Positions 26,193 through 62,290 of a stretch of DNA of 64,000 nt are shown in pieces. Both the position numbers and the translations under genes were made by a program. The notes beneath the pieces were generated by a model. The model saw nothing but the letters and a program-made list of their open reading frames with translations, was not told the DNA's origin and ran no database searches. Origin of the DNA: an uncultured Desulfobacterales bacterium (GTDB taxonomy: Bacteria > Desulfobacterota > Dissulfuribacteria > Dissulfuribacterales > QOAL01). The stretch lies in NCBI GenBank assembly GCA_964573805.1, contig CAZNKP010000020.1:3761-67760 (forward strand). Reading direction: 5' to 3'. Within the stretch, counting starts at the first letter, position 1, and the number at the start of each line of letters is the position of its first letter.

Positions 26193-26591
26193 TTAATGTT
26201 TCCCTGGGGCAAGGGGTTTCCCCCTTCGTTCATAAGTAATATACGCCTCTAGGGCTATCATCTTGGGATCATCTAGTTTGAGCGGTTCTCCTTCAAGGGG
26301 ATTTTGTATGCACCAGTTGATCATGTCTCTAAGTGCGACCACCTTGCCAATCTGTTTCTGGAATTTGGGATAGGTCTCCGGGTGAGTATTTGAGGCATTT
26401 GGATGACACATGTCGCAGGAAACCTTGTTGGTTCCAAGGGCACTGTGAAATAACCTGTCTCCCTCTTTTACAACGGTCATAAATTCCTTATTCCATTTTT
26501 CCAGGTCCTTCTGGGTGAATTCATCTGAAATGGCCAAATTGCCAATTCCAATAAAGAATACCAAGCTGATTAATGATAGTAGTTTTTTCAT
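26193..26591 (-). CDS. Periplasmic monoheme cytochrome c, SoxA/TsdA-like heme domain
   Basis: Signal peptide; single CDMCH; TYPKF...LRDMINWCIQNPLEG resembles the SoxA/TsdA segment that carries the Cys ligand. Confidence 0.75.
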   Translation of the reverse strand: MKKLLSLISLVFFIGIGNLAISDEFTQKDLEKWNKEFMTVVKEGDRLFHSALGTNKVSCDMCHPNASNTHPETYPKFQKQIGKVVALRDMINWCIQNPLEGEPLKLDDPKMIALEAYITYERRGKPLAPGKH

Positions 26592-26606
26592 GTCTATTGT
26601 CTCCTT

Positions 26607-27680
26607 TTAATAGTGTTGCTGAGGTGGAATCCGCCTTTCAGGATTTTGGTATTCGATATCAACTGGGTAACCGAGTTTTTTATCGTATCTGATTACACGA
26701 TCCCTGTTCTCCCACAGCTTGTAATGATTGGTTACCCGGCCATCTTCAAGGTTAAGGACAGACCAGCCTGTTGCATCCCTCTCATGGAAAGGATCGGCCC
26801 TGTTCATAAACACAGTAATCTTGGGAACTAGGTTGGGTTTCTGGATATAGCTTGGTGGATAGGGCCATGGCCAAGCCGTAGACATCATTGCCTGAAAGGT
26901 GATATTACCTATCTGATTATAAAGAATCTGGTGTACGTGGCCATGAAGGACAGTGACCTTTTCAAAGGGCTGAAGTAACGCCTGCACCTTTTCTGCATCA
27001 TCTGTCCAGAAGTTCCAGGGTTTGAAAATCTTGTAGAGAGGTGAATGAGACATGACTACTACCGGCGTCTCCTTAGATATTTTAGACAGGTCCTTTCTCA
27101 ACCATTCGAGCTGTGTGTTTCCTACCATGAACGGGGAACCTTCTGGATTGTCAAGGCGCGCCATGTTGTTCATCCGTTCTTCAGGGCTTTTCCATCTATT
27201 CATCCAGGTGTTGTAGGTGAGTATCGAATTGAGCACCACGAAGTGGATGCCCTTATGATTAAAGCTGTAGGTGGTCTTTGAAATCTTGTCTTCCCAGAAC
27301 CTTCCAAGGTCAAGATAATAGTCGTGCTCACCTATGACCCATCTTATCGGGTGTCTGAGCCTCGACATGATCTCAAGCCCATGTTCAAGCTCTTCCCTTT
27401 TGCCAAGCTGTGCAAGATCTCCTCCATATACTACAAAGTCCGGTTTCGGAGACATAAAGTTGCACTCAGTAACTGCTCTTTTTAGACCCTTGTCAAAATT
27501 TCTGACAAATTCGGTACCCTTGATATGGGTGAGATGGGAATCCGAGATATAGGCAAGGGTGAAATTTTGGCGATCGTTCTTCCCCCATGAAAATTCCACC
27601 AGGCCTAGGGGCAGGCTCGCTGCTGCGGCAACGGCTGCCCCTGCTTTTATAAATCCCCTTCGTGTAATTTTTTTCTTCAC
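26607..27680 (-). CDS. Tat-exported calcineurin-like metallophosphoesterase
   Basis: TRRGFIK twin-arginine signal; ISDSH, GGDL, GEHD, MSHSP and HGHVH motifs. Confidence 0.85.
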   Translation of the reverse strand: MKKKITRRGFIKAGAAVAAAASLPLGLVEFSWGKNDRQNFTLAYISDSHLTHIKGTEFVRNFDKGLKRAVTECNFMSPKPDFVVYGGDLAQLGKREELEHGLEIMSRLRHPIRWVIGEHDYYLDLGRFWEDKISKTTYSFNHKGIHFVVLNSILTYNTWMNRWKSPEERMNNMARLDNPEGSPFMVGNTQLEWLRKDLSKISKETPVVVMSHSPLYKIFKPWNFWTDDAEKVQALLQPFEKVTVLHGHVHQILYNQIGNITFQAMMSTAWPWPYPPSYIQKPNLVPKITVFMNRADPFHERDATGWSVLNLEDGRVTNHYKLWENRDRVIRYDKKLGYPVDIEYQNPERRIPPQQHY

Positions 27681-27692
27681 TGCTTCCTCCTT

Positions 27693-28805
27693 TTATTTGT
27701 TGTTTTTAAGCAATGTTTGATATGCTGGGCTGGTTAAGGCCTTGAGAAATTCAAGCAGATCAAGCTTTTCTTGTTCTGTAAGATTGAGTGGCCTTATTCC
27801 GCTGTCCAGCATCGGGTTATCCTCACCGCCCTGATCGTAAAGTTCAATAACCTCTTCCAGGGTTTCTATGCTTCCGTCATGCATATAAGGGCCTGTCACA
27901 GCCACGTTTCTTAGCGTAGGGGTCTTAAATCTGCCAATGTCTTCTATATCCATGGTTACTGCAAAACGCCCCAGCTCTGAAATTTCCTGTTTTTCAAGAA
28001 CTTTTTCATCTAAGGCCAGTCCTTTGGATTTTGCCTTTCTGATTTTTTCCACTATTGCCATGAGTTTTGGCTCGATCCTGAAAAATCCCACCCCAAGATT
28101 GTGAAATTTGTTGTCTGTAAATATTGCGCTTGTCTGGCTGATTGTATGACAATCCTGGCATCTTGCCTTGGTGCGGAAAATGTCGAGTCCGCGGATTGCT
28201 GCCTTTGACATTGCATCCTTTTCTCTGCCATACATGTATCTATCAAAGGGGGAATCTCCAGAAATCACGGTCCTCTCAAAGGAGGCTATGGCCTTTACAA
28301 CATGGTTTATGTTGATATCAGCAGTTTTTACCCCAAAGGCCTTGTTAAAAAGCGAGGGGTATTCATGGTCTTTTGTTATTATTTCAATTATTGGCGAAAA
28401 GTCTTTAAGGCCGTGTTCTACCGGATTTATAAAAGGGCCCTTTGCCTGTTCTTCCAAGGTTTCTACTCTCCCGTCCCAAAATTGGGAGGTGTAATAGGCT
28501 GAATTTATTACTGTAGGTGAATTTCTTGTCCCTTTTTTCTTTTGAATTCCTCGGGCCACAGGACGACCATCTGTAAACGCCTTTTGGGGATCATGGCAGG
28601 TGGCGCAGCTCACAGTGGAATCAGCGCTAAACCTCTTGTCCTCAAAAAGACGCTTCCCCAGTATTATTTTGGCTGGGTTCTGCTGATTGTCTGCAGGTAT
28701 GGGAACCGGTGGCAGCCCTAAAGGGGTGTCGTGTCCTCCCGCAAGCGTTATTCCTGCAACGGACAAGACAATCAAGACAACAAAAAACACAGTGATTTTT
28801 TTCAT
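27693..28805 (-). CDS. Diheme bCcP/MauG-superfamily enzyme (MauG-like)
   Basis: Signal peptide; CATCH and CQDCH; RNSPT, QFWDGR, NPVE, FKTPTLRN, PYMHDG, ELY. Confidence 0.9.
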   Translation of the reverse strand: MKKITVFFVVLIVLSVAGITLAGGHDTPLGLPPVPIPADNQQNPAKIILGKRLFEDKRFSADSTVSCATCHDPQKAFTDGRPVARGIQKKKGTRNSPTVINSAYYTSQFWDGRVETLEEQAKGPFINPVEHGLKDFSPIIEIITKDHEYPSLFNKAFGVKTADININHVVKAIASFERTVISGDSPFDRYMYGREKDAMSKAAIRGLDIFRTKARCQDCHTISQTSAIFTDNKFHNLGVGFFRIEPKLMAIVEKIRKAKSKGLALDEKVLEKQEISELGRFAVTMDIEDIGRFKTPTLRNVAVTGPYMHDGSIETLEEVIELYDQGGEDNPMLDSGIRPLNLTEQEKLDLLEFLKALTSPAYQTLLKNNK

Positions 28806-54320: not shown

Positions 54321-55019
54321 CTACCGATCCTTACACGATAGTTTGTCAAGACTCAAAGCCGCCAAGTCAGCAATGGATATCTCTTTTAGGTCATCATCAA
54401 GGAAAATCTTTACGAGCCTTCTATCCGACAGATTATTAGCTATATCGTCGCACAGTTCCCTGACACCGGAATAACCAAGAGCCAAGATAGCAAGGGCCTT
54501 TGATTCGGCATCCCGATCTGATAAGTAACCTTTTAATATCTTCCATGCCTCTATCTCTCTAAAGATTTTCGTCCTGGTCTTGGCAAGCCTATAAAGGCCC
54601 CAAAGTGCCCCGCGTCTTAAAGGCATGTATTCTAGAAAGTTTCCATCTTCCCATATATATGAAAGAAGAATCCTGGAATACTCTCTGGCAAGGATTTCGT
54701 TTTGAGACATGGCCTCTGCCATGGCCTCTGGAGCCCCCCAGCCTATACCTCCAGATTCGTCGTTGAGGCTCCACATAAGCCTCCTCATTACAACTCTAGC
54801 CGCTTCTACATCCTTTTGGGCCAAGCGATTTATCACGTGTCCAAAGGCCCTTATCGCAATCCATCGTTCAAGGCCTTCAGGTTGGTAGAAGCTTCTGATA
54901 AGAGTTGAAATTAGCTTTTGGGGTGGGAATGACGAGATATAATCCATAACAGGCGGAAGCCTCCCCTCTTTAAGGAGCAGGGATAACCTCCGCCTATCTT
55001 TATAAGAAAAACCGGACAT
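54321..55019 (-). CDS. DVU0298 family HEAT-repeat protein
   Basis: RLMWSLNDESGGIGWGAPEAMAE; start adjusted to MSGFS. Confidence 0.78.
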   Translation of the reverse strand: MSGFSYKDRRRLSLLLKEGRLPPVMDYISSFPPQKLISTLIRSFYQPEGLERWIAIRAFGHVINRLAQKDVEAARVVMRRLMWSLNDESGGIGWGAPEAMAEAMSQNEILAREYSRILLSYIWEDGNFLEYMPLRRGALWGLYRLAKTRTKIFREIEAWKILKGYLSDRDAESKALAILALGYSGVRELCDDIANNLSDRRLVKIFLDDDLKEISIADLAALSLDKLSCKDR

Positions 55020-55036
55020 GATGGCATGTGCTATTT

Positions 55037-55366
55037 CTAGTCTAGCGGCTCCATCTCTTTGCCACAACACATAGGAACCGGCTGGCCCATCCTGCAGTTC
55101 ATGTATTTGTTGCATACAGCACAATAATAGGTACAGTCTTCCTCTACTTTGTGTTCTGGTGAATAAGTGGTCTGACCACCTTTGATACCCTCTATATGAA
55201 ACCTGGCTACCTTGTCGTGTCCTGGAACATAGTTTCCCATTGGCACTATCTTTTTATTATCTCCATAACAGTCGACCACAACTTTCCAAAGCACCTCCAA
55301 GGACGCTGCCTCTTGGGGGTTTTCTGGTTCAAATTCAACTACATTTTTATCTACTAAGATCTTCAT
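55037..55366 (-). CDS. Small protein with C-terminal desulforedoxin-like CxxC...CC domain
   Basis: CAVC-x14-CCG; start adjusted to MKILV. Confidence 0.65.
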   Translation of the reverse strand: MKILVDKNVVEFEPENPQEAASLEVLWKVVVDCYGDNKKIVPMGNYVPGHDKVARFHIEGIKGGQTTYSPEHKVEEDCTYYCAVCNKYMNCRMGQPVPMCCGKEMEPLD

Positions 55367-55397
55367 ATATCTTGAAACTCCTTGTTGCTTTGTAAGT

Positions 55398-56603
55398 TTA
55401 GTTCTGATTCTCAAGAGAGTCTATTATCTTTTGCCCCATAAGCTGTCCGATCTCTTTGCACTTTTTAAGGTCTTCGTGGGTCGGCACATACTTTACCTTC
55501 ATTCCTTCATGAACCAGCTCAAACTTCCATTCTTCCATTGCCTTATTCATATGTTTTACTGCCTCTCCGCTCCAACCATAAGAACCAAATGCAAAGCCAA
55601 ACTTCTGGGCTGGCCTTAGCCCCCGAAGGTACATAAGGAAACCAGCCATGGCGGGCAAGAGCCCGTTGTTTAAGGTTGGACAGCCAAGACATATACCTTT
55701 TGCATCTATTACATCTGTTACAATCTCGCTTCTATGATTAACGCCAAGATCAAGAAGCTTTACGCTTACGCCCGTTGATTCGAGGCCATCTGCCACCGCC
55801 TTGGCCATCATCTCGGTGCTATGCCACATGGTATCATATATTACCAAGGCCTTTTGGGTTCCCCTGTGGTGTGACCAATTTTCATAGGCCTTTAGGATCT
55901 TGCCAGGGTCTTTTCTCCAAATAACACCATGATCCGGGGCTATCATGTCTATCTCAATTCCAGCATCTGCAACACTTTTTAGGAGTTTTCTGACCTGTGG
56001 TGAATAGAGATAGAGTATGTTGGCGTAGTATTTCTTTGCCTGGTACATGAGTTCGGATTGGTCTACTTCATCATCAAAGCGCTCGCTTGTGCCAAGGTGC
56101 TGTCCAAATGCGTCACTTGATATGAGAAGCTTCTCCTCTGGAATGTAGGAAAACATGGAGTCTGGCCAATGCAACATCCTTGTCTCTATAAATGTTATGG
56201 AGCGCTTGCCAACTGATATGGTTTCCCCGTTTTCTACCACATGATATGGCCATTCTGGCCTGTGAAAGTGGGCTAGAAGATTTTTATGTCCCATCTTGGA
56301 GCAGATTATTTTTTCTGGTTTTACAAGTTCTACGATTTCCGGCAAAGAACCACTGTGATCCATTTCTACATGGTTGACCACTATATAGTCGATCTTTTCC
56401 GGATCGGTCAGGGTGCGTATCCTATGCACCAAATCGGAGCACAGGTTATGTTTTACAGTGTCAAAGAGGACGGTCTTTTCATCAAACATCAAAAAGGCAT
56501 TATAGGTCGTACCCTTATAGGTTGAATAGCCATGGAAGTCTCTTACAAGCCAGTCCACAGCCCCTACCCAGTAGATATCTTTCTTTATCTCATATACCTG
56601 CAT
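55398..56603 (-). CDS. fprA: Flavodiiron protein (rubredoxin:oxygen/NO oxidoreductase)
   Basis: HVEMDHSG, HWPD, SDAFG, PDHG; flavodoxin domain TMWHST, SYGWSG. Confidence 0.95.
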   Translation of the reverse strand: MQVYEIKKDIYWVGAVDWLVRDFHGYSTYKGTTYNAFLMFDEKTVLFDTVKHNLCSDLVHRIRTLTDPEKIDYIVVNHVEMDHSGSLPEIVELVKPEKIICSKMGHKNLLAHFHRPEWPYHVVENGETISVGKRSITFIETRMLHWPDSMFSYIPEEKLLISSDAFGQHLGTSERFDDEVDQSELMYQAKKYYANILYLYSPQVRKLLKSVADAGIEIDMIAPDHGVIWRKDPGKILKAYENWSHHRGTQKALVIYDTMWHSTEMMAKAVADGLESTGVSVKLLDLGVNHRSEIVTDVIDAKGICLGCPTLNNGLLPAMAGFLMYLRGLRPAQKFGFAFGSYGWSGEAVKHMNKAMEEWKFELVHEGMKVKYVPTHEDLKKCKEIGQLMGQKIIDSLENQN

Positions 56604-56621: not shown

Positions 56622-56783
56622 CTACTCTGCCGGCTCGAACTGATCCTTTGATGCTCCACAGATGGGACAAGTCCAGTCCTCTGGAAGATCATCAAAGGGC
56701 GTGCCGGGCTTAATGCCATTTTCAGGATCTCCGTTTTTAGGATCATATACATAGCCGCATACTGTACATCTATACTGTTTCAT
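56622..56783 (-). CDS. rub: Rubredoxin
   Basis: [10 protein letters not shown]...WTCPICG. Confidence 0.95.
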
Positions 56784-56866
56784 TGATTTCACCTCTGTCC
56801 TTTTCGAGGCCACCTCAAAAAATTTTTCATGGATCTTCAAAACTTGAGGATGGCCTTTGTTTATTT

Positions 56867-57088
56867 CTATGCTGTAGTTTTGGTATGTGCTTCCGCAACA
56901 GACCCATCACCTGCCAAAGGCCTGAACATGGCCTTTGTGGCACCGCATACAGGGCATCTCCAATCATCTGGAAGATCCTCAAATTTTGTCCCCTTGGGGA
57001 TCTTTCCTTTCCTGTCTCCTTTATCGGGATTATAAATATAGCCACAGTTGACAGTTTGACACTGGTACATCTCTTCAGGCTGTGCCAT
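56867..57088 (-). CDS. Rubredoxin-like protein (CxxxxC type)
   Basis: [10 protein letters not shown]...WRCPVCG. Confidence 0.88.
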
Positions 57089-57209: not shown

Positions 57210-57731
57210 TTATTCTTGAGGCATCGGAACAGGAAGAGGTCTTTGGCCAAGCTCCCTGTCCACCATAAAGAGGCCGCCGCCCTTGCCATCAGGGCCACTG
57301 GCCAGTTTTAATTTCTGAACAACCGCATTTGCAGAAGCCTCTTCCTCCACCTGCTCGCTGACAAACCACTGGAGAAAGATCTGGGTGGCATGATCTTTTT
57401 CTTCAATAGCCAAATTCATAAGGTCGTTGATCAGGCTGGTTACGTACTGCTCATGCTCATAGGCATGCTCAAATACAGCCAAGGCCGAATCCCAGTCCTG
57501 CTTTGGGGCCTGAATGGCATCCAGCAAGACCCTGCCTCCGCGTTCGATCACAAAATCGTATATCTTCATGGCGTGAATCGTCTCTTCTTGGGTCTGGGCC
57601 TTCATCCACTTGGCACACCCTTCTAGATCCACGCTTTCAAAATACGAAGCCATTGATAGATACAGATAGGCCGAATAGAGTTCTGCATTTATCTGCTTAT
57701 TCAGTGCCTTTTCCATCTTTTCACTTAGCAT
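57210..57731 (-). CDS. ftn: Non-heme ferritin
   Basis: [32 protein letters not shown]; start adjusted to MLSEK. Confidence 0.93.
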
Positions 57732-57733
57732 TT

Positions 57734-58108
57734 TTAGCTCCTCCACAGTCCATGAAGGTTGCAGTAGGCCCGGGCGGTTACCGTTGAGGCATCTGTGCAG
57801 AAACTTGCCTCTGGTTCCTGACCTGGCCTGAGAAATACACGCTGAGAGACATCTCCAGCAATAAGCTCGATCCACTCGATATAGTGTTTGTCTTCCATGG
57901 GATGGGCAGCAGTGCCGACTCTTACCTTGTAGCCCTTGTCTATCTTTTCTAATACAGGGACGTGTTTTTCTTTAGCAGCATCAACGGAATTCTCTTCCAT
58001 GAGCACCATGGGCTTACCGCAACATACCAACTGCCCTTTGCCCTCATGGACCATCTCGACCATGTTTCCGCAGATTTCACATTTGTATACCTCTAGTTTC
58101 CGAGTCAT
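57734..58108 (-). CDS. dfx: Desulfoferrodoxin (2Fe superoxide reductase)
   Basis: CEICGN-x-CCG desulforedoxin domain; EKHVP, HPM...HYIEW, CNLHG. Confidence 0.95.
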
Positions 58109-58141: not shown

Positions 58142-58600
58142 CTAGGTCACCTTTATATGCACAGGCTCGCTCAGCCAGGTTCCATGAAGATTGCAATCTG
58201 CAACGGCCTCCAGTTTTGTGTCCCCTGGCTTGTTGAGCCTTATTTCAAAACATGCGTTGGAGGAGGTGATTCCCCCTGCCAAATTCACCACCTCGGAAAC
58301 CTTTTTACCACCTACGTGCAACTCAATACGGTCTATCCAGTGCTCAGGAATCGAGGGATGCTCCAACATGAAACCCACTTTCACATTCACATCAAACCAA
58401 CGCCCCTTTTTAACGGTCTTTGGAGCCTCCACAAGAGGCACGTGTTTCTTTTCAAGATTGGAAGGGCTTTTTTTATTTACCAAGGTGTTAATCTTTGCAT
58501 TGCCTGCCCCCATTTTATAGTGACCGGCCTGGGCGATCTTTTCCAAAAACATCAAGACCGCCCCTGTCATGCCAACCTTCACGAACTGTCTTCTTTTCAT
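58142..58600 (-). CDS. Tat-signal neelaredoxin-type (1Fe) superoxide reductase
   Basis: MKRRQFVK twin-arginine signal; EKKHVP, EHP...EHWI, CNLHG. Confidence 0.8.
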   Translation of the reverse strand: MKRRQFVKVGMTGAVLMFLEKIAQAGHYKMGAGNAKINTLVNKKSPSNLEKKHVPLVEAPKTVKKGRWFDVNVKVGFMLEHPSIPEHWIDRIELHVGGKKVSEVVNLAGGITSSNACFEIRLNKPGDTKLEAVADCNLHGTWLSEPVHIKVT

Positions 58601-58613
58601 TTTTTCAACCTTT

Positions 58614-59951
58614 TTATTTTACATTGAGGGTCATCTGGGCACTGTTTACAAGTATTGGACTATACTCGTCTTCCGGCAGTTTAAAGAATTTACCCACAGA
58701 GCTTGGCACCTGGGCATAGAATAAGTTTGCATTTATGGTTAATTTACCCTTAGGCAGATCCTTCGGAAGCTGCCATACATAGTTTTCTATCTTTGTCTCT
58801 CTTGGCTTGATTCTATAATCAACCAATGAATTGTCTTTGGTGTACCACTGGCATACGGTCATACGTCCCTTTGGATCAAAGAAGGGTTTTCTAAAGATTC
58901 TGGCGCCACTTGGCACGTCACCATCCCTTTTAAGTCCCTTAAAACCTTTGATTTCCATGATTTCTCCTATAGCTTGGTACGCCAAGGCCTTTGAGTTGGC
59001 AATGGTATACTCCTCACCCTTAAAACCTTTGGGTTTCACTGGAATCTGATAACTCTTGCCATTTTCATCAATGGCCACAACCTCAAGCCACAACATACGT
59101 TCTTCAGAGGAACCAGAAGGGATAGCGTGGCCTACTTTGCCATTGAACAACACTGCTCTAATGCTGAGACTACTGCCAGGAGATAGTTCTTTTTTGTTGG
59201 TATAAATGGCAAGATCAACCGCCCCTGCAAGTTTTGTTGAAGAATGGGAACCTTGAAAAACGTGATGGGCGATATCATCCCTTTCTTTGCCTCCCATGGC
59301 AGACTTGCCAGGATGCTTGTGCATGTGGCAATCCTGACAGGTAACGCCTTCTTTTGCATAAGGTCCTTGTTTCCATTCCCTATATGTAGATTTTACCCAT
59401 GCTCCATAGGGGCTCTGCTCATCGTGACAGGTTGCACAAAACTCTGCTGTCTTGTGAAACTGGCTAAACCTGGTGGAATGAAAAGAAGATTTTGCATCCT
59501 TTCTGGGACCATTCTTTACCTTCCCTGGCTCGATCTTGAAACTAAAATTAAACGGTTCTTTTTCAGTTGTGCCTGTAATGCTGTGACACACATCACAGGA
59601 CACGCCTTCGTTGGCCCGCGTATTGGCAGAGGCCTCCTTTGGCGGAATATCTCCAGACAAAAATGCCAAAGGGCCATGACACGCGATACAACCGGCCTTC
59701 ACGCCTGCAACCTTTTCCAGCTTTTTGGAATGGGGCAGGGCCAGCTTGAAATACTCGACCTGATCCCATCGGTGGGTAAAACTTTGGGACATCAATGTCT
59801 TTTGCCATTCCTGGTATATTGCCTTATGGCACATGCTGCACTTTTTAGGTTTTGAAAAGTCACTATACTTATGGCTACCCATCTGTGCGCCAAAGAGATA
59901 GCCAGGCACAATTAGCGCTATAAGCACGCCCAACAAGACCTTTCCTTTCAT
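58614..59951 (-). CDS. Periplasmic pentaheme cytochrome c (c554-like family)
   Basis: Signal peptide; CSMCH, CIACH, CDVCH, CATCH, CQDCH; GHAIPSG...R.LWLEV; start adjusted to MKGKV. Confidence 0.85.
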   Translation of the reverse strand: MKGKVLLGVLIALIVPGYLFGAQMGSHKYSDFSKPKKCSMCHKAIYQEWQKTLMSQSFTHRWDQVEYFKLALPHSKKLEKVAGVKAGCIACHGPLAFLSGDIPPKEASANTRANEGVSCDVCHSITGTTEKEPFNFSFKIEPGKVKNGPRKDAKSSFHSTRFSQFHKTAEFCATCHDEQSPYGAWVKSTYREWKQGPYAKEGVTCQDCHMHKHPGKSAMGGKERDDIAHHVFQGSHSSTKLAGAVDLAIYTNKKELSPGSSLSIRAVLFNGKVGHAIPSGSSEERMLWLEVVAIDENGKSYQIPVKPKGFKGEEYTIANSKALAYQAIGEIMEIKGFKGLKRDGDVPSGARIFRKPFFDPKGRMTVCQWYTKDNSLVDYRIKPRETKIENYVWQLPKDLPKGKLTINANLFYAQVPSSVGKFFKLPEDEYSPILVNSAQMTLNVK

Positions 59952-60064
59952 TCTCCTTCCTCCTTTTTTATAAGCAACTGCTGAGACCGTTTTTCTAAGA
60001 ACTTGTATTGAGAACCATTGAGCATGGGGGGGCTTGCCCCCCAACAATTACCCATCTGGTTTAT

Positions 60065-60658
60065 CTATTTGGCATGTTTTTTCAAATAGTCTTTAACCCC
60101 TTCTTGAGTAGGTTTCATGGCATCCTCTCCAGGCCGCCAATTGGCAGGGCAAACCTCGCCATGACCCTCATGATACTGTAATGCCTCGAGAATCCTTAGG
60201 GCCTCATCAATGTTTCTCCCAAGTGGCAGATCGTTCACAAGCTGATGCCTTACCACCCCGTCTTTATCAAGGAGGAATAAGCCCCTCAAAGAAATGCCTT
60301 CATCCTCAAGAAGAACTCCATATGACAAGGAGATCTTTTTTGTGAGATCTGAAACGAGAGGATAACTTATCTTTCCAATCCCACCTTCCTCTACAGGTGT
60401 TTGGCGCCATGCATAATGTGTAAATGGTGAGTCCACGGAGATGGCAAGAATCTCGCAGTTTTTCTCGCGGAACTTATCTGCCGCCTTGTCCAAGGCGATT
60501 ATTTCGGTTGGTCAGACAAAAGTAAAGTCTAAAGGATAGAAAAAGAGAAGAACATACTTCCCCTTGTACTGAGACAAGGTGATTTCTTCTATAGCATCAT
60601 TTGGCATTACAGCTTGGGCCTTAAAATCCGGTGCCTTCTTGGTAACCATTACACACAT
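60065..60658 (-). CDS. ahpC: Peroxiredoxin AhpC with selenocysteine at the peroxidatic position
   Basis: Two in-frame ORFs joined by TGA at 60514-60512 read [14 protein letters not shown]; resolving motif GEVCPANW. Confidence 0.92.
60482..60497 (-). promoter_or_regulatory. Bacterial SECIS hairpin
   Basis: CGCCTT-GGAC-AAGGCG; the G-starting loop lies 20 nt downstream of the UGA. Confidence 0.75.
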
Positions 60659-60726
60659 TTTTGCTTCCTCCTTGTTTTTGTTTTTTATTAACCCTATACG
60701 GGCAATATTTTTCAATTTCTGATCCC

Positions 60727-61302
60727 TTACCAGGTCTCTACCATAAGCTCAAAGTATCCCTTTGAATGGGCACAGGCCGGACACTTCTCAGGGGGCTCTT
60801 TGCCATCATGCACATAACCACAGTTTCTGCATTTCCATTTCACAGGCTCGTCCCTCTTAAAGACCTTGCCTTCTTCAATGTTTTGGGCAAGCTGCTTGTA
60901 ACGTTCCTCGTGGAACTTTTCTGCGACAGCTATTGCCTCAAATATGCAGGCAATTTCATTAAACCCCTCTTCTTTTGCCTTTGCCGCAAACTGGGGATAC
61001 ATCTGGGTATGCTCATAGTTTTCACCTTCTGCCGAAGCCTTTAGATTGTCAAGGGTGCTTCCTATAACGCCGGCAGGAAAACTTGCGCATATCTCGAGTT
61101 CACCGCCTTCTAAAAACTTGAATAACCTCTTGGCATGTTCTTTTTCCTGGTTGGCAGTCTCCTCAAACACAGCAGCGATTTGCACATAGCCTTCCTTTTT
61201 GGCTTTGCTTGCAAAATATGTGTAGCGATTTCTTGCCTGTGATTCCCCGGCAAAGGCCTTTAAAAGATTTTTTTCTGTTTCTGTACCCTTAAGTGATTTC
61301 AT
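60727..61302 (-). CDS. rbr: Rubrerythrin
   Basis: [24 protein letters not shown]-terminal CRNCG...CPAC. Confidence 0.96.
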
Positions 61303-61377: not shown

Positions 61378-61626
61378 TCAGGCTTCTATTGCCTGACGAC
61401 CTGCCTCTGTAATTTCATATTTGCACCTTGAAGGGCTATCAAGAAGCCCCTTTGTCCTTAGACTTCTTATCCTGCAGCTAAGGGATTTTGAGGGGATTCC
61501 TGTTGCCTCTGCTATATCTTTTGAGGCTACAGGTCCTTCCATCTCAGCCATTGCCATAAGAATCCTCTTTTGCTCTTCAGTGAGCCTTAACTCTTTTTCT
61601 CCCGTTTTCTTACGCTTGCAAGCCAT
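61378..61626 (-). CDS. Small winged helix-turn-helix protein
   Basis: VASKDIAEATG...SLSCRIRSL..KGL...KYEIT..G; AGGAGG RBS. Confidence 0.7.
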   Translation of the reverse strand: MACKRKKTGEKELRLTEEQKRILMAMAEMEGPVASKDIAEATGIPSKSLSCRIRSLRTKGLLDSPSRCKYEITEAGRQAIEA

Positions 61627-61684: not shown

Positions 61685-62080
61685 TTAATCTTTTTGAGAT
61701 CTGTTGTTTTGCTGGCAGAATGGACAAATTCCCTCAAACTGGACACCGCATTTTAGGATCTTATAGCCCCTGGAATCCAAAACCATGTCTAATATCTCTG
61801 AGTCATCCCTGGTTTTCACATCTGATATCCTGCCGCATTTTACGCAAAAAACATGGCTATGGGGGCTTATATCTCCATCAAACCTTTTCTGACGGCCACC
61901 GTATTCTAATTTATGTATCATCCCGGCCTCTGACAACCTCTCTAGGTTTCTGTAAACAGTCGCGATGCTAATTCTGGGAAGCCGTTTTCTTACTACCTCA
62001 TAAAGCTCGTCAGCCGTAGGATGGGTTTTAAGTTTTCGGAGCTCTTCCAAAATTATTTCCCGCTGGTTTGTAATTCTCAT
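61685..62080 (-). CDS. perR: Peroxide-stress regulator PerR (Fur family)
   Basis: HPTAD, TVYRNL, RFDG...HSHVFCVKCG..SD, CPFC; heads the rbr/ahpC cluster. Confidence 0.85.
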   Translation of the reverse strand: MRITNQREIILEELRKLKTHPTADELYEVVRKRLPRISIATVYRNLERLSEAGMIHKLEYGGRQKRFDGDISPHSHVFCVKCGRISDVKTRDDSEILDMVLDSRGYKILKCGVQFEGICPFCQQNNRSQKD

Positions 62081-62290
62081 TCAGAATCGAATCCTTTTTG
62101 ATAATTTTTACTATTTAATAGCATGTTTTAAAAAGAATGTCAATAAAGCAGATAAAAAAAATCATATTTATTTAATATGCAGACCTCTAATCTTTTGGCA
62201 CTAACAAGAATTATTCGTATCTTACAGTATTGTAACTGATAAATTTAACGATAAGATAAATGGATACTTTTAAAGGAGGAAAATTTCCTG

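Follow-up and report, generated by a model that had tools for sequence, protein, structure and literature searches.

A pentaheme cytochrome gene directly ahead of a twin-arginine superoxide reductase gene in an oxygen-defense cluster: a candidate periplasmic electron hub

Superoxide reductases (SORs) are regarded as cytoplasmic enzymes fed by rubredoxin. We analyzed a window of 64,000 nucleotides from an uncultured Desulfobacterales bacterium (assembly GCA_964573805.1, contig CAZNKP010000020.1, positions 3,761 to 67,760), in which the gene of a five-heme c-type cytochrome directly precedes the gene of an SOR with a twin-arginine signal. An earlier note, made from the sequence alone, had regarded these two genes as a candidate periplasmic superoxide-reduction module. 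In window coordinates, the cytochrome gene (445 aa) was located at 58614..59951 and the gene of the 152-aa class II (1Fe) SOR precursor, hereafter Tat-SOR, at 58142..58600. Both were on the minus strand at the positions given in that note, and the gap between the TAA of the cytochrome gene and the ATG of the SOR gene (58601..58613, minus strand) was indeed 13 nt, with AAGG as a weak ribosome-binding site. A strong Shine-Dalgarno sequence, AAGGAGGAAGGAGA, was found ahead of the cytochrome ATG. The pair was only the periplasmic part of a much larger oxygen-defense operon. The co-directional genes on the minus strand were, in order, those for a Fur/PerR-family regulator, a putative helix-turn-helix (HTH) protein, rubrerythrin, peroxiredoxin, the cytochrome, the Tat-SOR, and desulfoferrodoxin, followed by those for ferritin, two rubredoxins, a flavodiiron protein, a small Cys-rich protein, and a DVU0298-family protein. 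The common strand, the 13-nt spacing, and the absence of a terminator-like site on the minus strand from 62080 to 55100, in a scan whose sites were no more numerous than in shuffled sequence, suggest that these genes are co-transcribed.

The SOR gene product matched the Pfam family Desulfoferrodoxin (PF01880) with an E value of 1.1e-21 over residues 48-143 (77.6 bits against a cut-off of 22.2). Its score with NCBIfam TIGR00332 was 47.6 bits, under the cut-off of 61.9, and solved 1Fe-SORs were matched in a phmmer search with an E value of 2e-8. The mature protein has only two cysteines, C117 and C136, and, unlike the neighboring desulfoferrodoxin, no N-terminal desulforedoxin domain (no PF06397 match). 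The iron ligands H53, H81, H87, C136, and H139 were invariant both in a 23-sequence alignment and among 20 diverse Tat-SORs, in agreement with the four His and one Cys read earlier. As for the Glu-Lys pair that had also been claimed, both residues were present near the iron site (E50 and K52), but the Glu was at position -3 from the first His (E50-K51-K52-H53, EKKHVP) instead of the canonical -2, which is the spacing shown by the neighboring desulfoferrodoxin (E-K-H in AKEKHVP). The E-x-K/G-H spacing occurred in 49 of the 50 non-redundant Tat-SORs collected, and natural SORs without one member of the Glu-Lys pair are still active. An AlphaFold2 model built on 16 homologues had a predicted local distance difference test (pLDDT) score above 90 for most of residues 35-152 and below 50 for residues 1-34, the disorder expected for a predicted signal peptide and linker. 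When this model was compared with known structures by Foldseek, the best 16 matches in the Protein Data Bank (PDB) were all neelaredoxin-type 1Fe-SORs, with template modeling (TM) scores of 0.63-0.74; 4BK8 and 6GQ8 were among the structure matches. Judged by its ligand set and predicted fold, the protein is a bona fide class II 1Fe-SOR.

The signal region of the SOR precursor covers aa 1-26 (MKRRQFVKVGMTGAVLMFLEKIAQA|G; 58523..58600, minus strand), with a putative cleavage site after AQA. The motif K2-R3-R4-Q5-F6-V7-K8 fits the consensus S/T-R-R-x-F-L-K, and the twin-arginine leader reported in the earlier note (KRRQFVK) was borne out by conservation. R3 and R4 did not vary among 16 closer Tat-SORs, which were 42-70% identical, or in a broader set of 20 with Sulfurovum- and Nitrospinaceae-type sequences of 29-35% identity; F6 and K8 were also invariant among the 16 closer sequences, giving a leader of the form M-x-R-R-x-F-x-K. 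All 50 non-redundant copies carried an RR-containing leader, and generic TAT-signal hidden Markov models (HMMs) matched 11 (Pfam) and 8 (TIGR01409) of 20 Tat-SOR homologues. By sequence, the protein thus belongs to the described TAT-SOR class, and its export is predicted. At the level of selection, the nonsynonymous divergence (dN) of the SOR gene was 0.22-0.26, compared with 0.03-0.13 for its neighbors, that is, about 2-9 times faster evolution; dN alone was compared because synonymous sites were saturated (proportion of synonymous differences, pS, 0.55-0.88). A dN of this size against saturated synonymous sites indicates purifying selection on Tat-SOR. As a side observation, weak matches to SoxY models were obtained for 10-13 of 20 Tat-SORs (best 2.7e-8), and SoxYZ structures were among the fold matches; the Tat leader and the common Ig-like sandwich are both possible sources of these matches.

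Directly ahead of the SOR gene, as claimed earlier, the window encodes a five-heme cytochrome with a Sec-type leader. Its translation begins with MKGKVLL, and the signal peptide read from it (aa 1-22, MKGKVLLGVLIALIVPGYLFGA; 59886..59951, minus strand) lacks a lipobox Cys. Export is a prerequisite for c-type heme attachment. The protein contains exactly five CXXCH motifs, all on the minus strand and identified from the sequence and the alignments: CSMCH (C38-H42, 59826..59840), CIACH (C88-H92, 59676..59690), CDVCH (C119-H123, 59583..59597), CATCH (C172-H176, 59424..59438), and CQDCH (C205-H209, 59325..59339). All five were invariant in 42 orthologues and in 17 distant relatives. Heme ligation was judged from residue conservation. 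Outside the motifs, five His (H60, H158, H230, H236, and H275) and M54 were invariant in the orthologues, which would be enough for five six-coordinate hemes in this group. Across relatives of 28-49% identity, about four distal-ligand candidates were kept (M54/H55, H158, H230, and H275), and this would leave one heme without an obvious conserved distal ligand. The sole non-motif Cys, C367, lies in the Ig-like domain and was about 90% conserved.

The N-terminal heme region matched Pfam Cytochrome_C554 above the cut-off (34.7 bits). Over its whole length, the protein matched Thermochromatium tepidum c552 (PDB 5ZE8) in three collinear stretches (phmmer, 2.8e-10). The AlphaFold2 model had a predicted TM score (pTM) of 0.77; the Ig-like C-terminal half mostly exceeded a pLDDT of 90, and the heme cap had low pLDDT, as expected without cofactors. 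The top Foldseek match was again 5ZE8 (E 2.7e-17, TM 0.61), and the remaining matches covered the Ig-like domain only. The architecture is therefore an N-terminal five-heme cap followed by a C-terminal Ig-like beta-sandwich (about aa 245-445). From sequence and model, the cytochrome is a member of the PHC family, to which the cable-bacteria PHCs also belong, with the T. tepidum c552 fold and a distant relationship to ExtKL/MccSep, and so is not of unknown kind. The family is large: a threshold of E<=0.001 gave 2,910 cluster representatives, and one of E<=1e-30 gave 186. Orthologues were 62-91% identical and came from metagenome-assembled genomes (MAGs) labeled Thermodesulfobacteriota, Acidobacteriota, and Phycisphaerales; 135 of 445 columns were invariant across them, including the loop that bears the catalytic selenocysteine in MccSep. 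The identification as NrfA was rejected, because all motifs are CXXCH with no CXXCK and NrfA profiles matched only about 25 residues with 15-16 bits against cut-offs of 595-692, and that as a di-heme cytochrome c peroxidase (CCP) or MauG because a match to PF03150 (CCP_MauG) was absent in the Pfam search.

The window protein shares its five-heme cap and its C-terminal Ig-like domain with the low-potential c552, but the identity in the structural alignment was 16%, and a His and a Cys of c552 are replaced by M54 and K187, respectively. MccSep has been described as a pentaheme selenoenzyme, tetrameric in form, in which polysulfide is reduced at heme 2 by means of a distal Cys and a selenocysteine on a loop of the Ig-like domain (bioRxiv 10.1101/2025.11.18.688581); the second heme motif of the window protein is the counterpart of this active-site heme. 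We read MccSep-like genes through TGA in six distant loci and aligned them with the window cytochrome. The likeness to MccSep/ExtKL (GSU2937-2936 of Geobacter sulfurreducens) consists of the family-level fold, the five heme motifs, and a conserved GHxxPxG loop of the Ig-like domain. In the window cytochrome, the invariant loop G274-H275-x-x-P278-x-G280-S281-x-E283-E284-R285 aligned with the MccSep active-site loop GHxIPDG-selenocysteine, the selenocysteine being replaced by invariant Ser281 (GHAIPSGSSEER). Moreover, the heme 2 distal Cys (C239) corresponded to V186/K187, the score with NCBIfam NF040886 was 66.4 bits against a cut-off of 250, and the gene context was oxidative stress instead of an ext cluster. 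Because of the Ser281 replacement, the missing distal Cys, and the sub-threshold score, membership of the MccSep group was rejected; MccSep is a relative only. The cable-bacteria PHCs (sPHC, lPHC, and lPHC-truncated-hemoglobin fusions) are periplasmic pentaheme proteins of the same structural family, for which a part in the reduction of O2 in the periplasm was proposed (PMC11976967, PMC7875522). Unlike the lPHC fusions, the window protein has no globin domain, and the 10 longest of its 150 nearest representatives showed no fusion to a globin or another O2-binding domain.

Subsequently, the gene neighborhood was compared from the side of the cytochrome. With one genome per species scanned, 63 orthologous cytochrome loci were obtained, and one more was added through the Dissulfurimicrobium protein. 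In a comparison with the window proteins, 46 of these 64 loci had at least one oxidative-stress gene in their flanks, and the order conserved in relatives was PerR-HTH-Rbr-Prx-PHC-[slot]-Dfx-ferritin-Rd-Rd-FDP (Rbr, rubrerythrin; Prx, peroxiredoxin; Dfx, desulfoferrodoxin; Rd, rubredoxin; FDP, flavodiiron protein). For 57 loci, the downstream sequence was sufficient to assess Tat-SOR, which was located 15-80 nt downstream of the cytochrome gene in 19; in the main clade the spacer was 15-31 nt long, in a second clade 47-80 nt. An octaheme cytochrome of the HAO/HDH family, identified by NCBIfam, adjoined the cytochrome in 17 of the 64 loci (among them L014, L015, L022-L026, L029, L031, L032, L034, L039, L042, L045, L051, and L154). 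The Dissulfurimicrobium operon (L154), for example, had the order PerR-Rbr-Prx-cytochrome-HAO-Dfx-ferritin-Rd-Rd-...-FDP, with a cytochrome bd oxidase two genes further on, and locus L013 had the order HAO-PHC-TatSOR. Partners can also lie apart: in the MAG CAZVXP01, a PHC-HAO pair (L023) and Tat-SOR (L159) were on separate contigs. Among cultured organisms, Thermodesulfatator atlanticus has genes for the cytochrome (L051) and for a Tat-SOR (P0176), and T. autotrophicus has a PHC-HAO pair (L014).

From the side of the SOR, some 35 loci were obtained by scanning metagenomes with a Tat-SOR profile and by eight context look-ups. The cytochrome was immediately upstream of Tat-SOR in about 10 of these (nine metagenome loci and L163). 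In L079, it was 1.7 kb downstream, past ferritin, peroxiredoxin, and rubredoxin genes. In L157 (4482-5969), an HAO-like octaheme cytochrome gene directly followed Tat-SOR, and its product shared 69% identity with the HAO found beside the cytochrome in Thermodesulfatator autotrophicus. In a rough neighbor-joining tree without bootstrap, the Tat-SORs next to PHC genes formed two separate groups, one of them nested among stand-alone SORs, which indicates that the association arose or persisted at least twice. The co-occurrence that the earlier note had named as a check was thus recurrent, with 19 genome loci and about 10 metagenome loci, but adjacency in 19 of 57 loci from the cytochrome and in about 10 of 35 from the SOR is not that of an obligate SOR-donor pair in either direction. 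Taken together, the cytochrome and Tat-SOR show a genuine, recurrent link that is restricted to oxygen-defense clusters of the Thermodesulfobacteriota type and is obligatory from neither side. The HAO-like neighbors suggest, from gene order, a three-way periplasmic link of the cytochrome, Tat-SOR, and the HAO-like protein.

The earlier note had offered the cytochrome as a donor to the SOR or as a new reductase. Since the SOR is not its only recurrent neighbor and an HAO-like octaheme cytochrome recurs as well, the role is better worded as that of an electron hub or an enzyme. We tentatively favor, with somewhat less than even confidence, a facultative periplasmic electron hub that would feed Tat-SOR. 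This reading was preferred because the cytochrome is constant while the slot behind it holds exchangeable periplasmic reductases, because the operon gives its cytoplasmic enzymes a dedicated donor in rubredoxin, and because the heme region is c554-like. Multiheme c-type centers are typically far below the SOR iron center, which is at roughly +200 to +300 mV; electron flow to the high-potential SOR iron would hence be downhill. By analogy, a constant cytochrome with a variable partner is the pattern of a donor with exchangeable enzymes, as in the c554-HAO and NrfB-NrfA pairs. As in these pairs, a multiheme cytochrome stands beside a periplasmic multiheme enzyme in the 17 relatives with an HAO-family octaheme cytochrome, and the Pfam c554 match points the same way. 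Unlike the four-heme c554 or the approximately 190-aa NrfB, however, the window cytochrome has five hemes and an Ig-like domain, and its partner in the window is a non-heme iron SOR.

Under the hub reading, the SOR would gain its iron centre in the cytoplasm and then be exported in the folded state by the twin-arginine translocation (Tat) pathway, as its conserved RR leader suggests. In the periplasm, it would turn superoxide, produced when low-potential periplasmic redox proteins autoxidize on contact with O2, into H2O2. The cytochrome, encoded 13 nt upstream on what is presumably the same message and exported through Sec, would be reduced by low-potential electrons of the periplasm, supplied by hydrogenase, formate dehydrogenase, or the cytochrome pool, and hand them to the SOR iron site; this direction of flow, like any physical interaction between the two proteins, is presumed. 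It would thereby serve the exported SOR as the two rubredoxins would serve the cytoplasmic desulfoferrodoxin, rubrerythrin, and flavodiiron protein. Such a partnership would be facultative: the operon would keep the cytochrome as its constant redox component in the periplasm, and the slot behind it in relatives is either taken by an HAO-like octaheme cytochrome or empty. The cytochrome and Tat-SOR would fit as the periplasmic arm of an oxygen-defense operon headed by a Fur/PerR-family regulator, in a Thermodesulfobacteriota bacterium from a hydrothermal vent. The arrangement resembles the rbo-rub and perR-rbr-roo operons of Desulfovibrio and Geobacter, where an SOR lies beside a one-electron donor in a PerR-associated cluster (PMC545781), and the window also carries the cytoplasmic desulfoferrodoxin-rubredoxin set. 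It differs from rbo-rub in that the proposed donor is a Sec-exported multiheme cytochrome and the SOR has a Tat leader, and would thus be a periplasmic counterpart of these operons, not a member. Another similarity is to the di-heme CCP/MacA of the Geobacter PerR clusters, in which a c-type cytochrome of the periplasm is likewise encoded under a regulator of peroxide stress (PMC545781); unlike CCP/MacA, the pentaheme cytochrome has no CCP_MauG domain, and a true CCP is encoded elsewhere in the window.

Several observations weigh against the hub reading. Two thirds of the assessable orthologous cytochrome loci had no adjacent Tat-SOR. In 10 loci, desulfoferrodoxin followed the cytochrome directly with no adjacent Tat-SOR, and 8 of these also had no adjacent HAO-like gene, so that a pure donor cytochrome would have no partner encoded nearby. 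Conversely, about 23 Tat-SOR loci were without a nearby multiheme cytochrome, including those of Nitrospirae, Nitrospinaceae, and Sulfurovum; stand-alone Tat-SORs were found in L081-L093, Nitrospirae L156, Nitrospinaceae L162, and Sulfurovum L160/L161. As most Tat-SOR lineages lack an adjacent cytochrome, these SORs evidently manage with other donors. The cytochrome, with its 62-91% identity and 135 invariant columns, was far more conserved than typical shuttle cytochromes. The leader of the window SOR was unmatched by Pfam TAT_signal or TIGR01409 at E<=1. Two sequencing runs contained this sequence as DNA (hydrothermal-vent metagenomes) and none as RNA. Finally, published work places relatives of the cytochrome among potentially catalytic proteins that have a pentacoordinate heme (PMC11976967).

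This last point leads to the close rival of the hub reading, which we consider possible but doubtful. Here the cytochrome would be an enzyme in its own right, a multiheme reductase of H2O2 or O2 in the periplasm with an open or labile heme 2 site, and would act in series with Tat-SOR by clearing the H2O2 that the latter makes. The SOR would then draw its electrons from generic periplasmic cytochromes, or only incidentally from this one. An enzyme would account for the retention of the gene in the eight loci with neither Tat-SOR nor an HAO-like gene adjacent, and for the unusually strong conservation, which extends to the loop aligned with the MccSep active site. All other non-regulatory genes of the operon encode a scavenger, its donor, or an iron store. 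About four conserved distal-ligand candidates for five hemes across the distant relatives point in the same direction, and MccSep demonstrates that this fold can be an enzyme. Of the cable-bacteria proteins, sPHC and lPHC were those classed as potentially catalytic (PMC11976967), and for the lPHC-globin fusion a function as an O2 reductase of the periplasm was put forward (PMC7875522). On the other hand, the invariant His and Met of the orthologues suffice for full six-coordination, a canonical di-heme CCP is already encoded 30 kb away in the same window (27693-28805), and the nearest representatives sampled carried no globin or O2-binding fusion. To our knowledge, no member of the PHC family reduces O2 or H2O2. 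A broader proposal is equally speculative: the cytochrome could be a new periplasmic O2- or peroxide-reducing enzyme or a dedicated electron distributor for such enzymes, which with Tat-SOR and, in relatives, the HAO-like protein would make up a full periplasmic chain by which strict anaerobes reduce reactive oxygen species, under common regulation with the rubredoxin-based chain of the cytoplasm.

Alternatively, the two genes might be linked by co-regulation only. The HAO-like octaheme cytochrome would then be the real partner of the cytochrome, with a role in nitrogen oxide or hydroxylamine detoxification like that of the c554-HAO pair, and Tat-SOR would have been inserted into a stress operon and use any periplasmic donor. 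SORs accept electrons from several donors in vitro, and Tat-SORs stand alone in most lineages. HAO-like genes flanked the cytochrome about as often as Tat-SOR did (17 and 19 loci), and Tat-SOR evolves faster than its neighbors by the factor given above. We nevertheless regard this explanation as unlikely. No HAO-like gene was found beside the cytochrome in the window, and in L054 the nearest HAO-like gene adjoined an NrfH-like cytochrome gene. The identical slot behind the cytochrome was taken by two separate Tat-SOR clades, and the HAO-like gene adjoining Tat-SOR in L157 suggests a three-way link instead of two unrelated pairs.

It is much less probable still that the SOR is not exported, being translated from Met17 or bearing a non-functional leader, so as to act as a second cytoplasmic SOR served by rubredoxin. 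A public gene call (P0121, 136 aa; in L074, a metagenome copy 99% identical) starts the SOR at Met17 and loses the leader, the TAT-signal HMMs missed the window copy, and the uncharged h-region of its leader is only 11 residues long, followed by E-K. Met17, however, is not conserved but is Leu in close relatives, while the twin-arginine leader is kept as described above and the stretch upstream of Met17 stays an open reading frame in all relatives; a start at Met17 was rejected on these grounds, and the long form appears to be the real gene. A cytoplasmic desulfoferrodoxin is, moreover, already encoded in the operon. As an aside, gene calls such as P0121 raise the possibility that Tat-SORs are under-counted in automatic annotation. 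The reading of the cytochrome as an MccSep-like reductase of sulfur compounds (polysulfide), placed in the operon incidentally, can practically be set aside: although a distant ExtKL/MccSep homology (NCBIfam 1.7e-18), the many hosts that are sulfur-disproportionating or sulfur-reducing thermophiles, and a role in sulfur metabolism suggested for T. tepidum c552 (PMC11976967) speak for it, the selenocysteine and the distal Cys are replaced, the NCBIfam score of 66 bits is far below 250, the context is one of oxidative stress in 46 of 64 loci, and no gene of sulfur metabolism was recognized among the neighbors checked.

The TAT class of SORs has been known from sequence since 2011, with members in SORGOdb such as Gmet_2613 and those of Geobacter uraniireducens, Desulfuromonas acetoxidans, and Desulfovibrio salexigens (PMC3116461). 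It was found to be highly transcribed in at least one abundant vent bacterium, and for the highly transcribed TAT-1Fe-SOR of Sulfurimonas pluma a periplasmic role was proposed from transcription data (PMC10066037). In line with the earlier note, the descriptions in the papers searched are bioinformatic or transcriptional only and name no donor. The window SOR is like this class as a single-domain center-II SOR with a twin-arginine leader and a predicted periplasmic location. It differs from the reported TAT-SORs, for which no donor or conserved neighbor was named, in its position behind a pentaheme cytochrome in a Fur/PerR-headed operon; Sulfurovum-type Tat-SORs, in particular, are only 29-35% identical to it and stand alone. 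In the literature, which for most subscription journals was not covered, so that these negatives are weak, we found no report of a PHC-family cytochrome in an oxygen-defense operon and no conserved neighbor or donor for Tat-SOR. A literature search for a pentaheme cytochrome linked to PerR or oxidative-stress operons likewise gave nothing relevant. The locus and its roughly 30 syntenic relatives thus provide a concrete, testable donor candidate for TAT-SOR, and oxygen defense as a first functional context for a large orphan cytochrome family whose only characterized member is a sulfur enzyme and whose cable-bacteria members are suspected oxygen reductases. If the link holds, strict anaerobes would run parallel cytoplasmic and periplasmic detoxification chains from one operon. 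If the broader proposal of a full periplasmic chain is true, a first physiological partner of TAT-class SORs would be named, and O2 handling by the PHC family in the periplasm, including the cytochrome-globin fusions of cable bacteria, would gain independent genomic support. If the link fails, Tat-SORs would be donor-promiscuous and the cytochrome would have a separate role.

The remaining genes of the cluster, all on the minus strand, were assigned as follows. The Fur-family (PerR-like) regulator at the head (61685..62080) matched Pfam FUR with 1.5e-30 and was followed by a small 82-aa putative winged-helix/HTH protein (61378..61626), which was conserved in the cluster and had no significant family match. 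Rubrerythrin (60727..61302; Pfam 3.6e-33) preceded a 2-Cys-type peroxiredoxin (60065..60715). The peroxiredoxin gene has an in-frame TGA (60512-60514) at the position of the peroxidatic Cys, and a 6-bp G/C hairpin, CGCCUUGGACAAGGCG, starts 17 nt downstream (60482-60497); the window peroxiredoxin is probably a selenocysteine protein. Full-length gene calls for the peroxiredoxin in L163 and in Dissulfurimicrobium (L154) point to a Cys version there. Behind the Tat-SOR gene, desulfoferrodoxin (the cytoplasmic 2Fe-SOR, 57734..58108) scored 201.9 bits with TIGR00320, above the cut-off, and was followed by ferritin (57210..57734; Pfam 1.3e-44). The two rubredoxins (56867-57088 and 56622-56840; Pfam 9.3e-22 and 9.9e-26) both lack a signal peptide, in keeping with the cytoplasmic location that the earlier note gave for rubredoxin. 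The flavodiiron protein (55398..56603) was of the rubredoxin:oxygen oxidoreductase type (Pfam ODP and Flavodoxin_1). The small Cys-rich protein, orf125 (55037-55414), had no NCBIfam family match and was conserved at the cluster end in relatives, just ahead of the gene for the DVU0298-family HEAT-repeat protein (54321-55124; NCBIfam 1.9e-59), which was also conserved in relatives. The C-terminal CxxC-x14-CC of orf125 (CAVC-x14-CCGKEM) has the cysteine spacing of a desulforedoxin-type FeS4 site.

In the non-coding parts, a promoter-like TTGACA-17-TATTAA was read by eye at 62115-62143 (minus strand), 35 nt upstream of the ATG of the Fur/PerR regulator; a consensus promoter scan did not report this site. 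Close to this site, and also upstream of the small HTH gene, there are AT-rich partial palindromes, which are possible operator sites. The stretch from the stop of the peroxiredoxin gene to the start of the cytochrome gene contained a GGGGGG-CAAG-CCCCCC hairpin (60027-60042, minus strand) with no U-run after it; a G/C hairpin of another sequence occupied this position in L001, L007, and L060 and, judged by the alignment, in L002 and L004 as well. This hairpin may be a partial terminator or a processing or stabilizing element that would split the cluster into two units; judged from their positions, the cytochrome and SOR genes stay together whether the cluster is one unit or two.

Elsewhere in the window, three co-directional genes for periplasmic proteins were found at 26193-28805 on the minus strand. 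These encode the canonical di-heme CCP mentioned above (27693-28805; CCP_MauG 8.3e-59), a Tat-signal metallophosphoesterase (26607-27680), and a SoxA/TsdA-type monoheme cytochrome (26193-26591).

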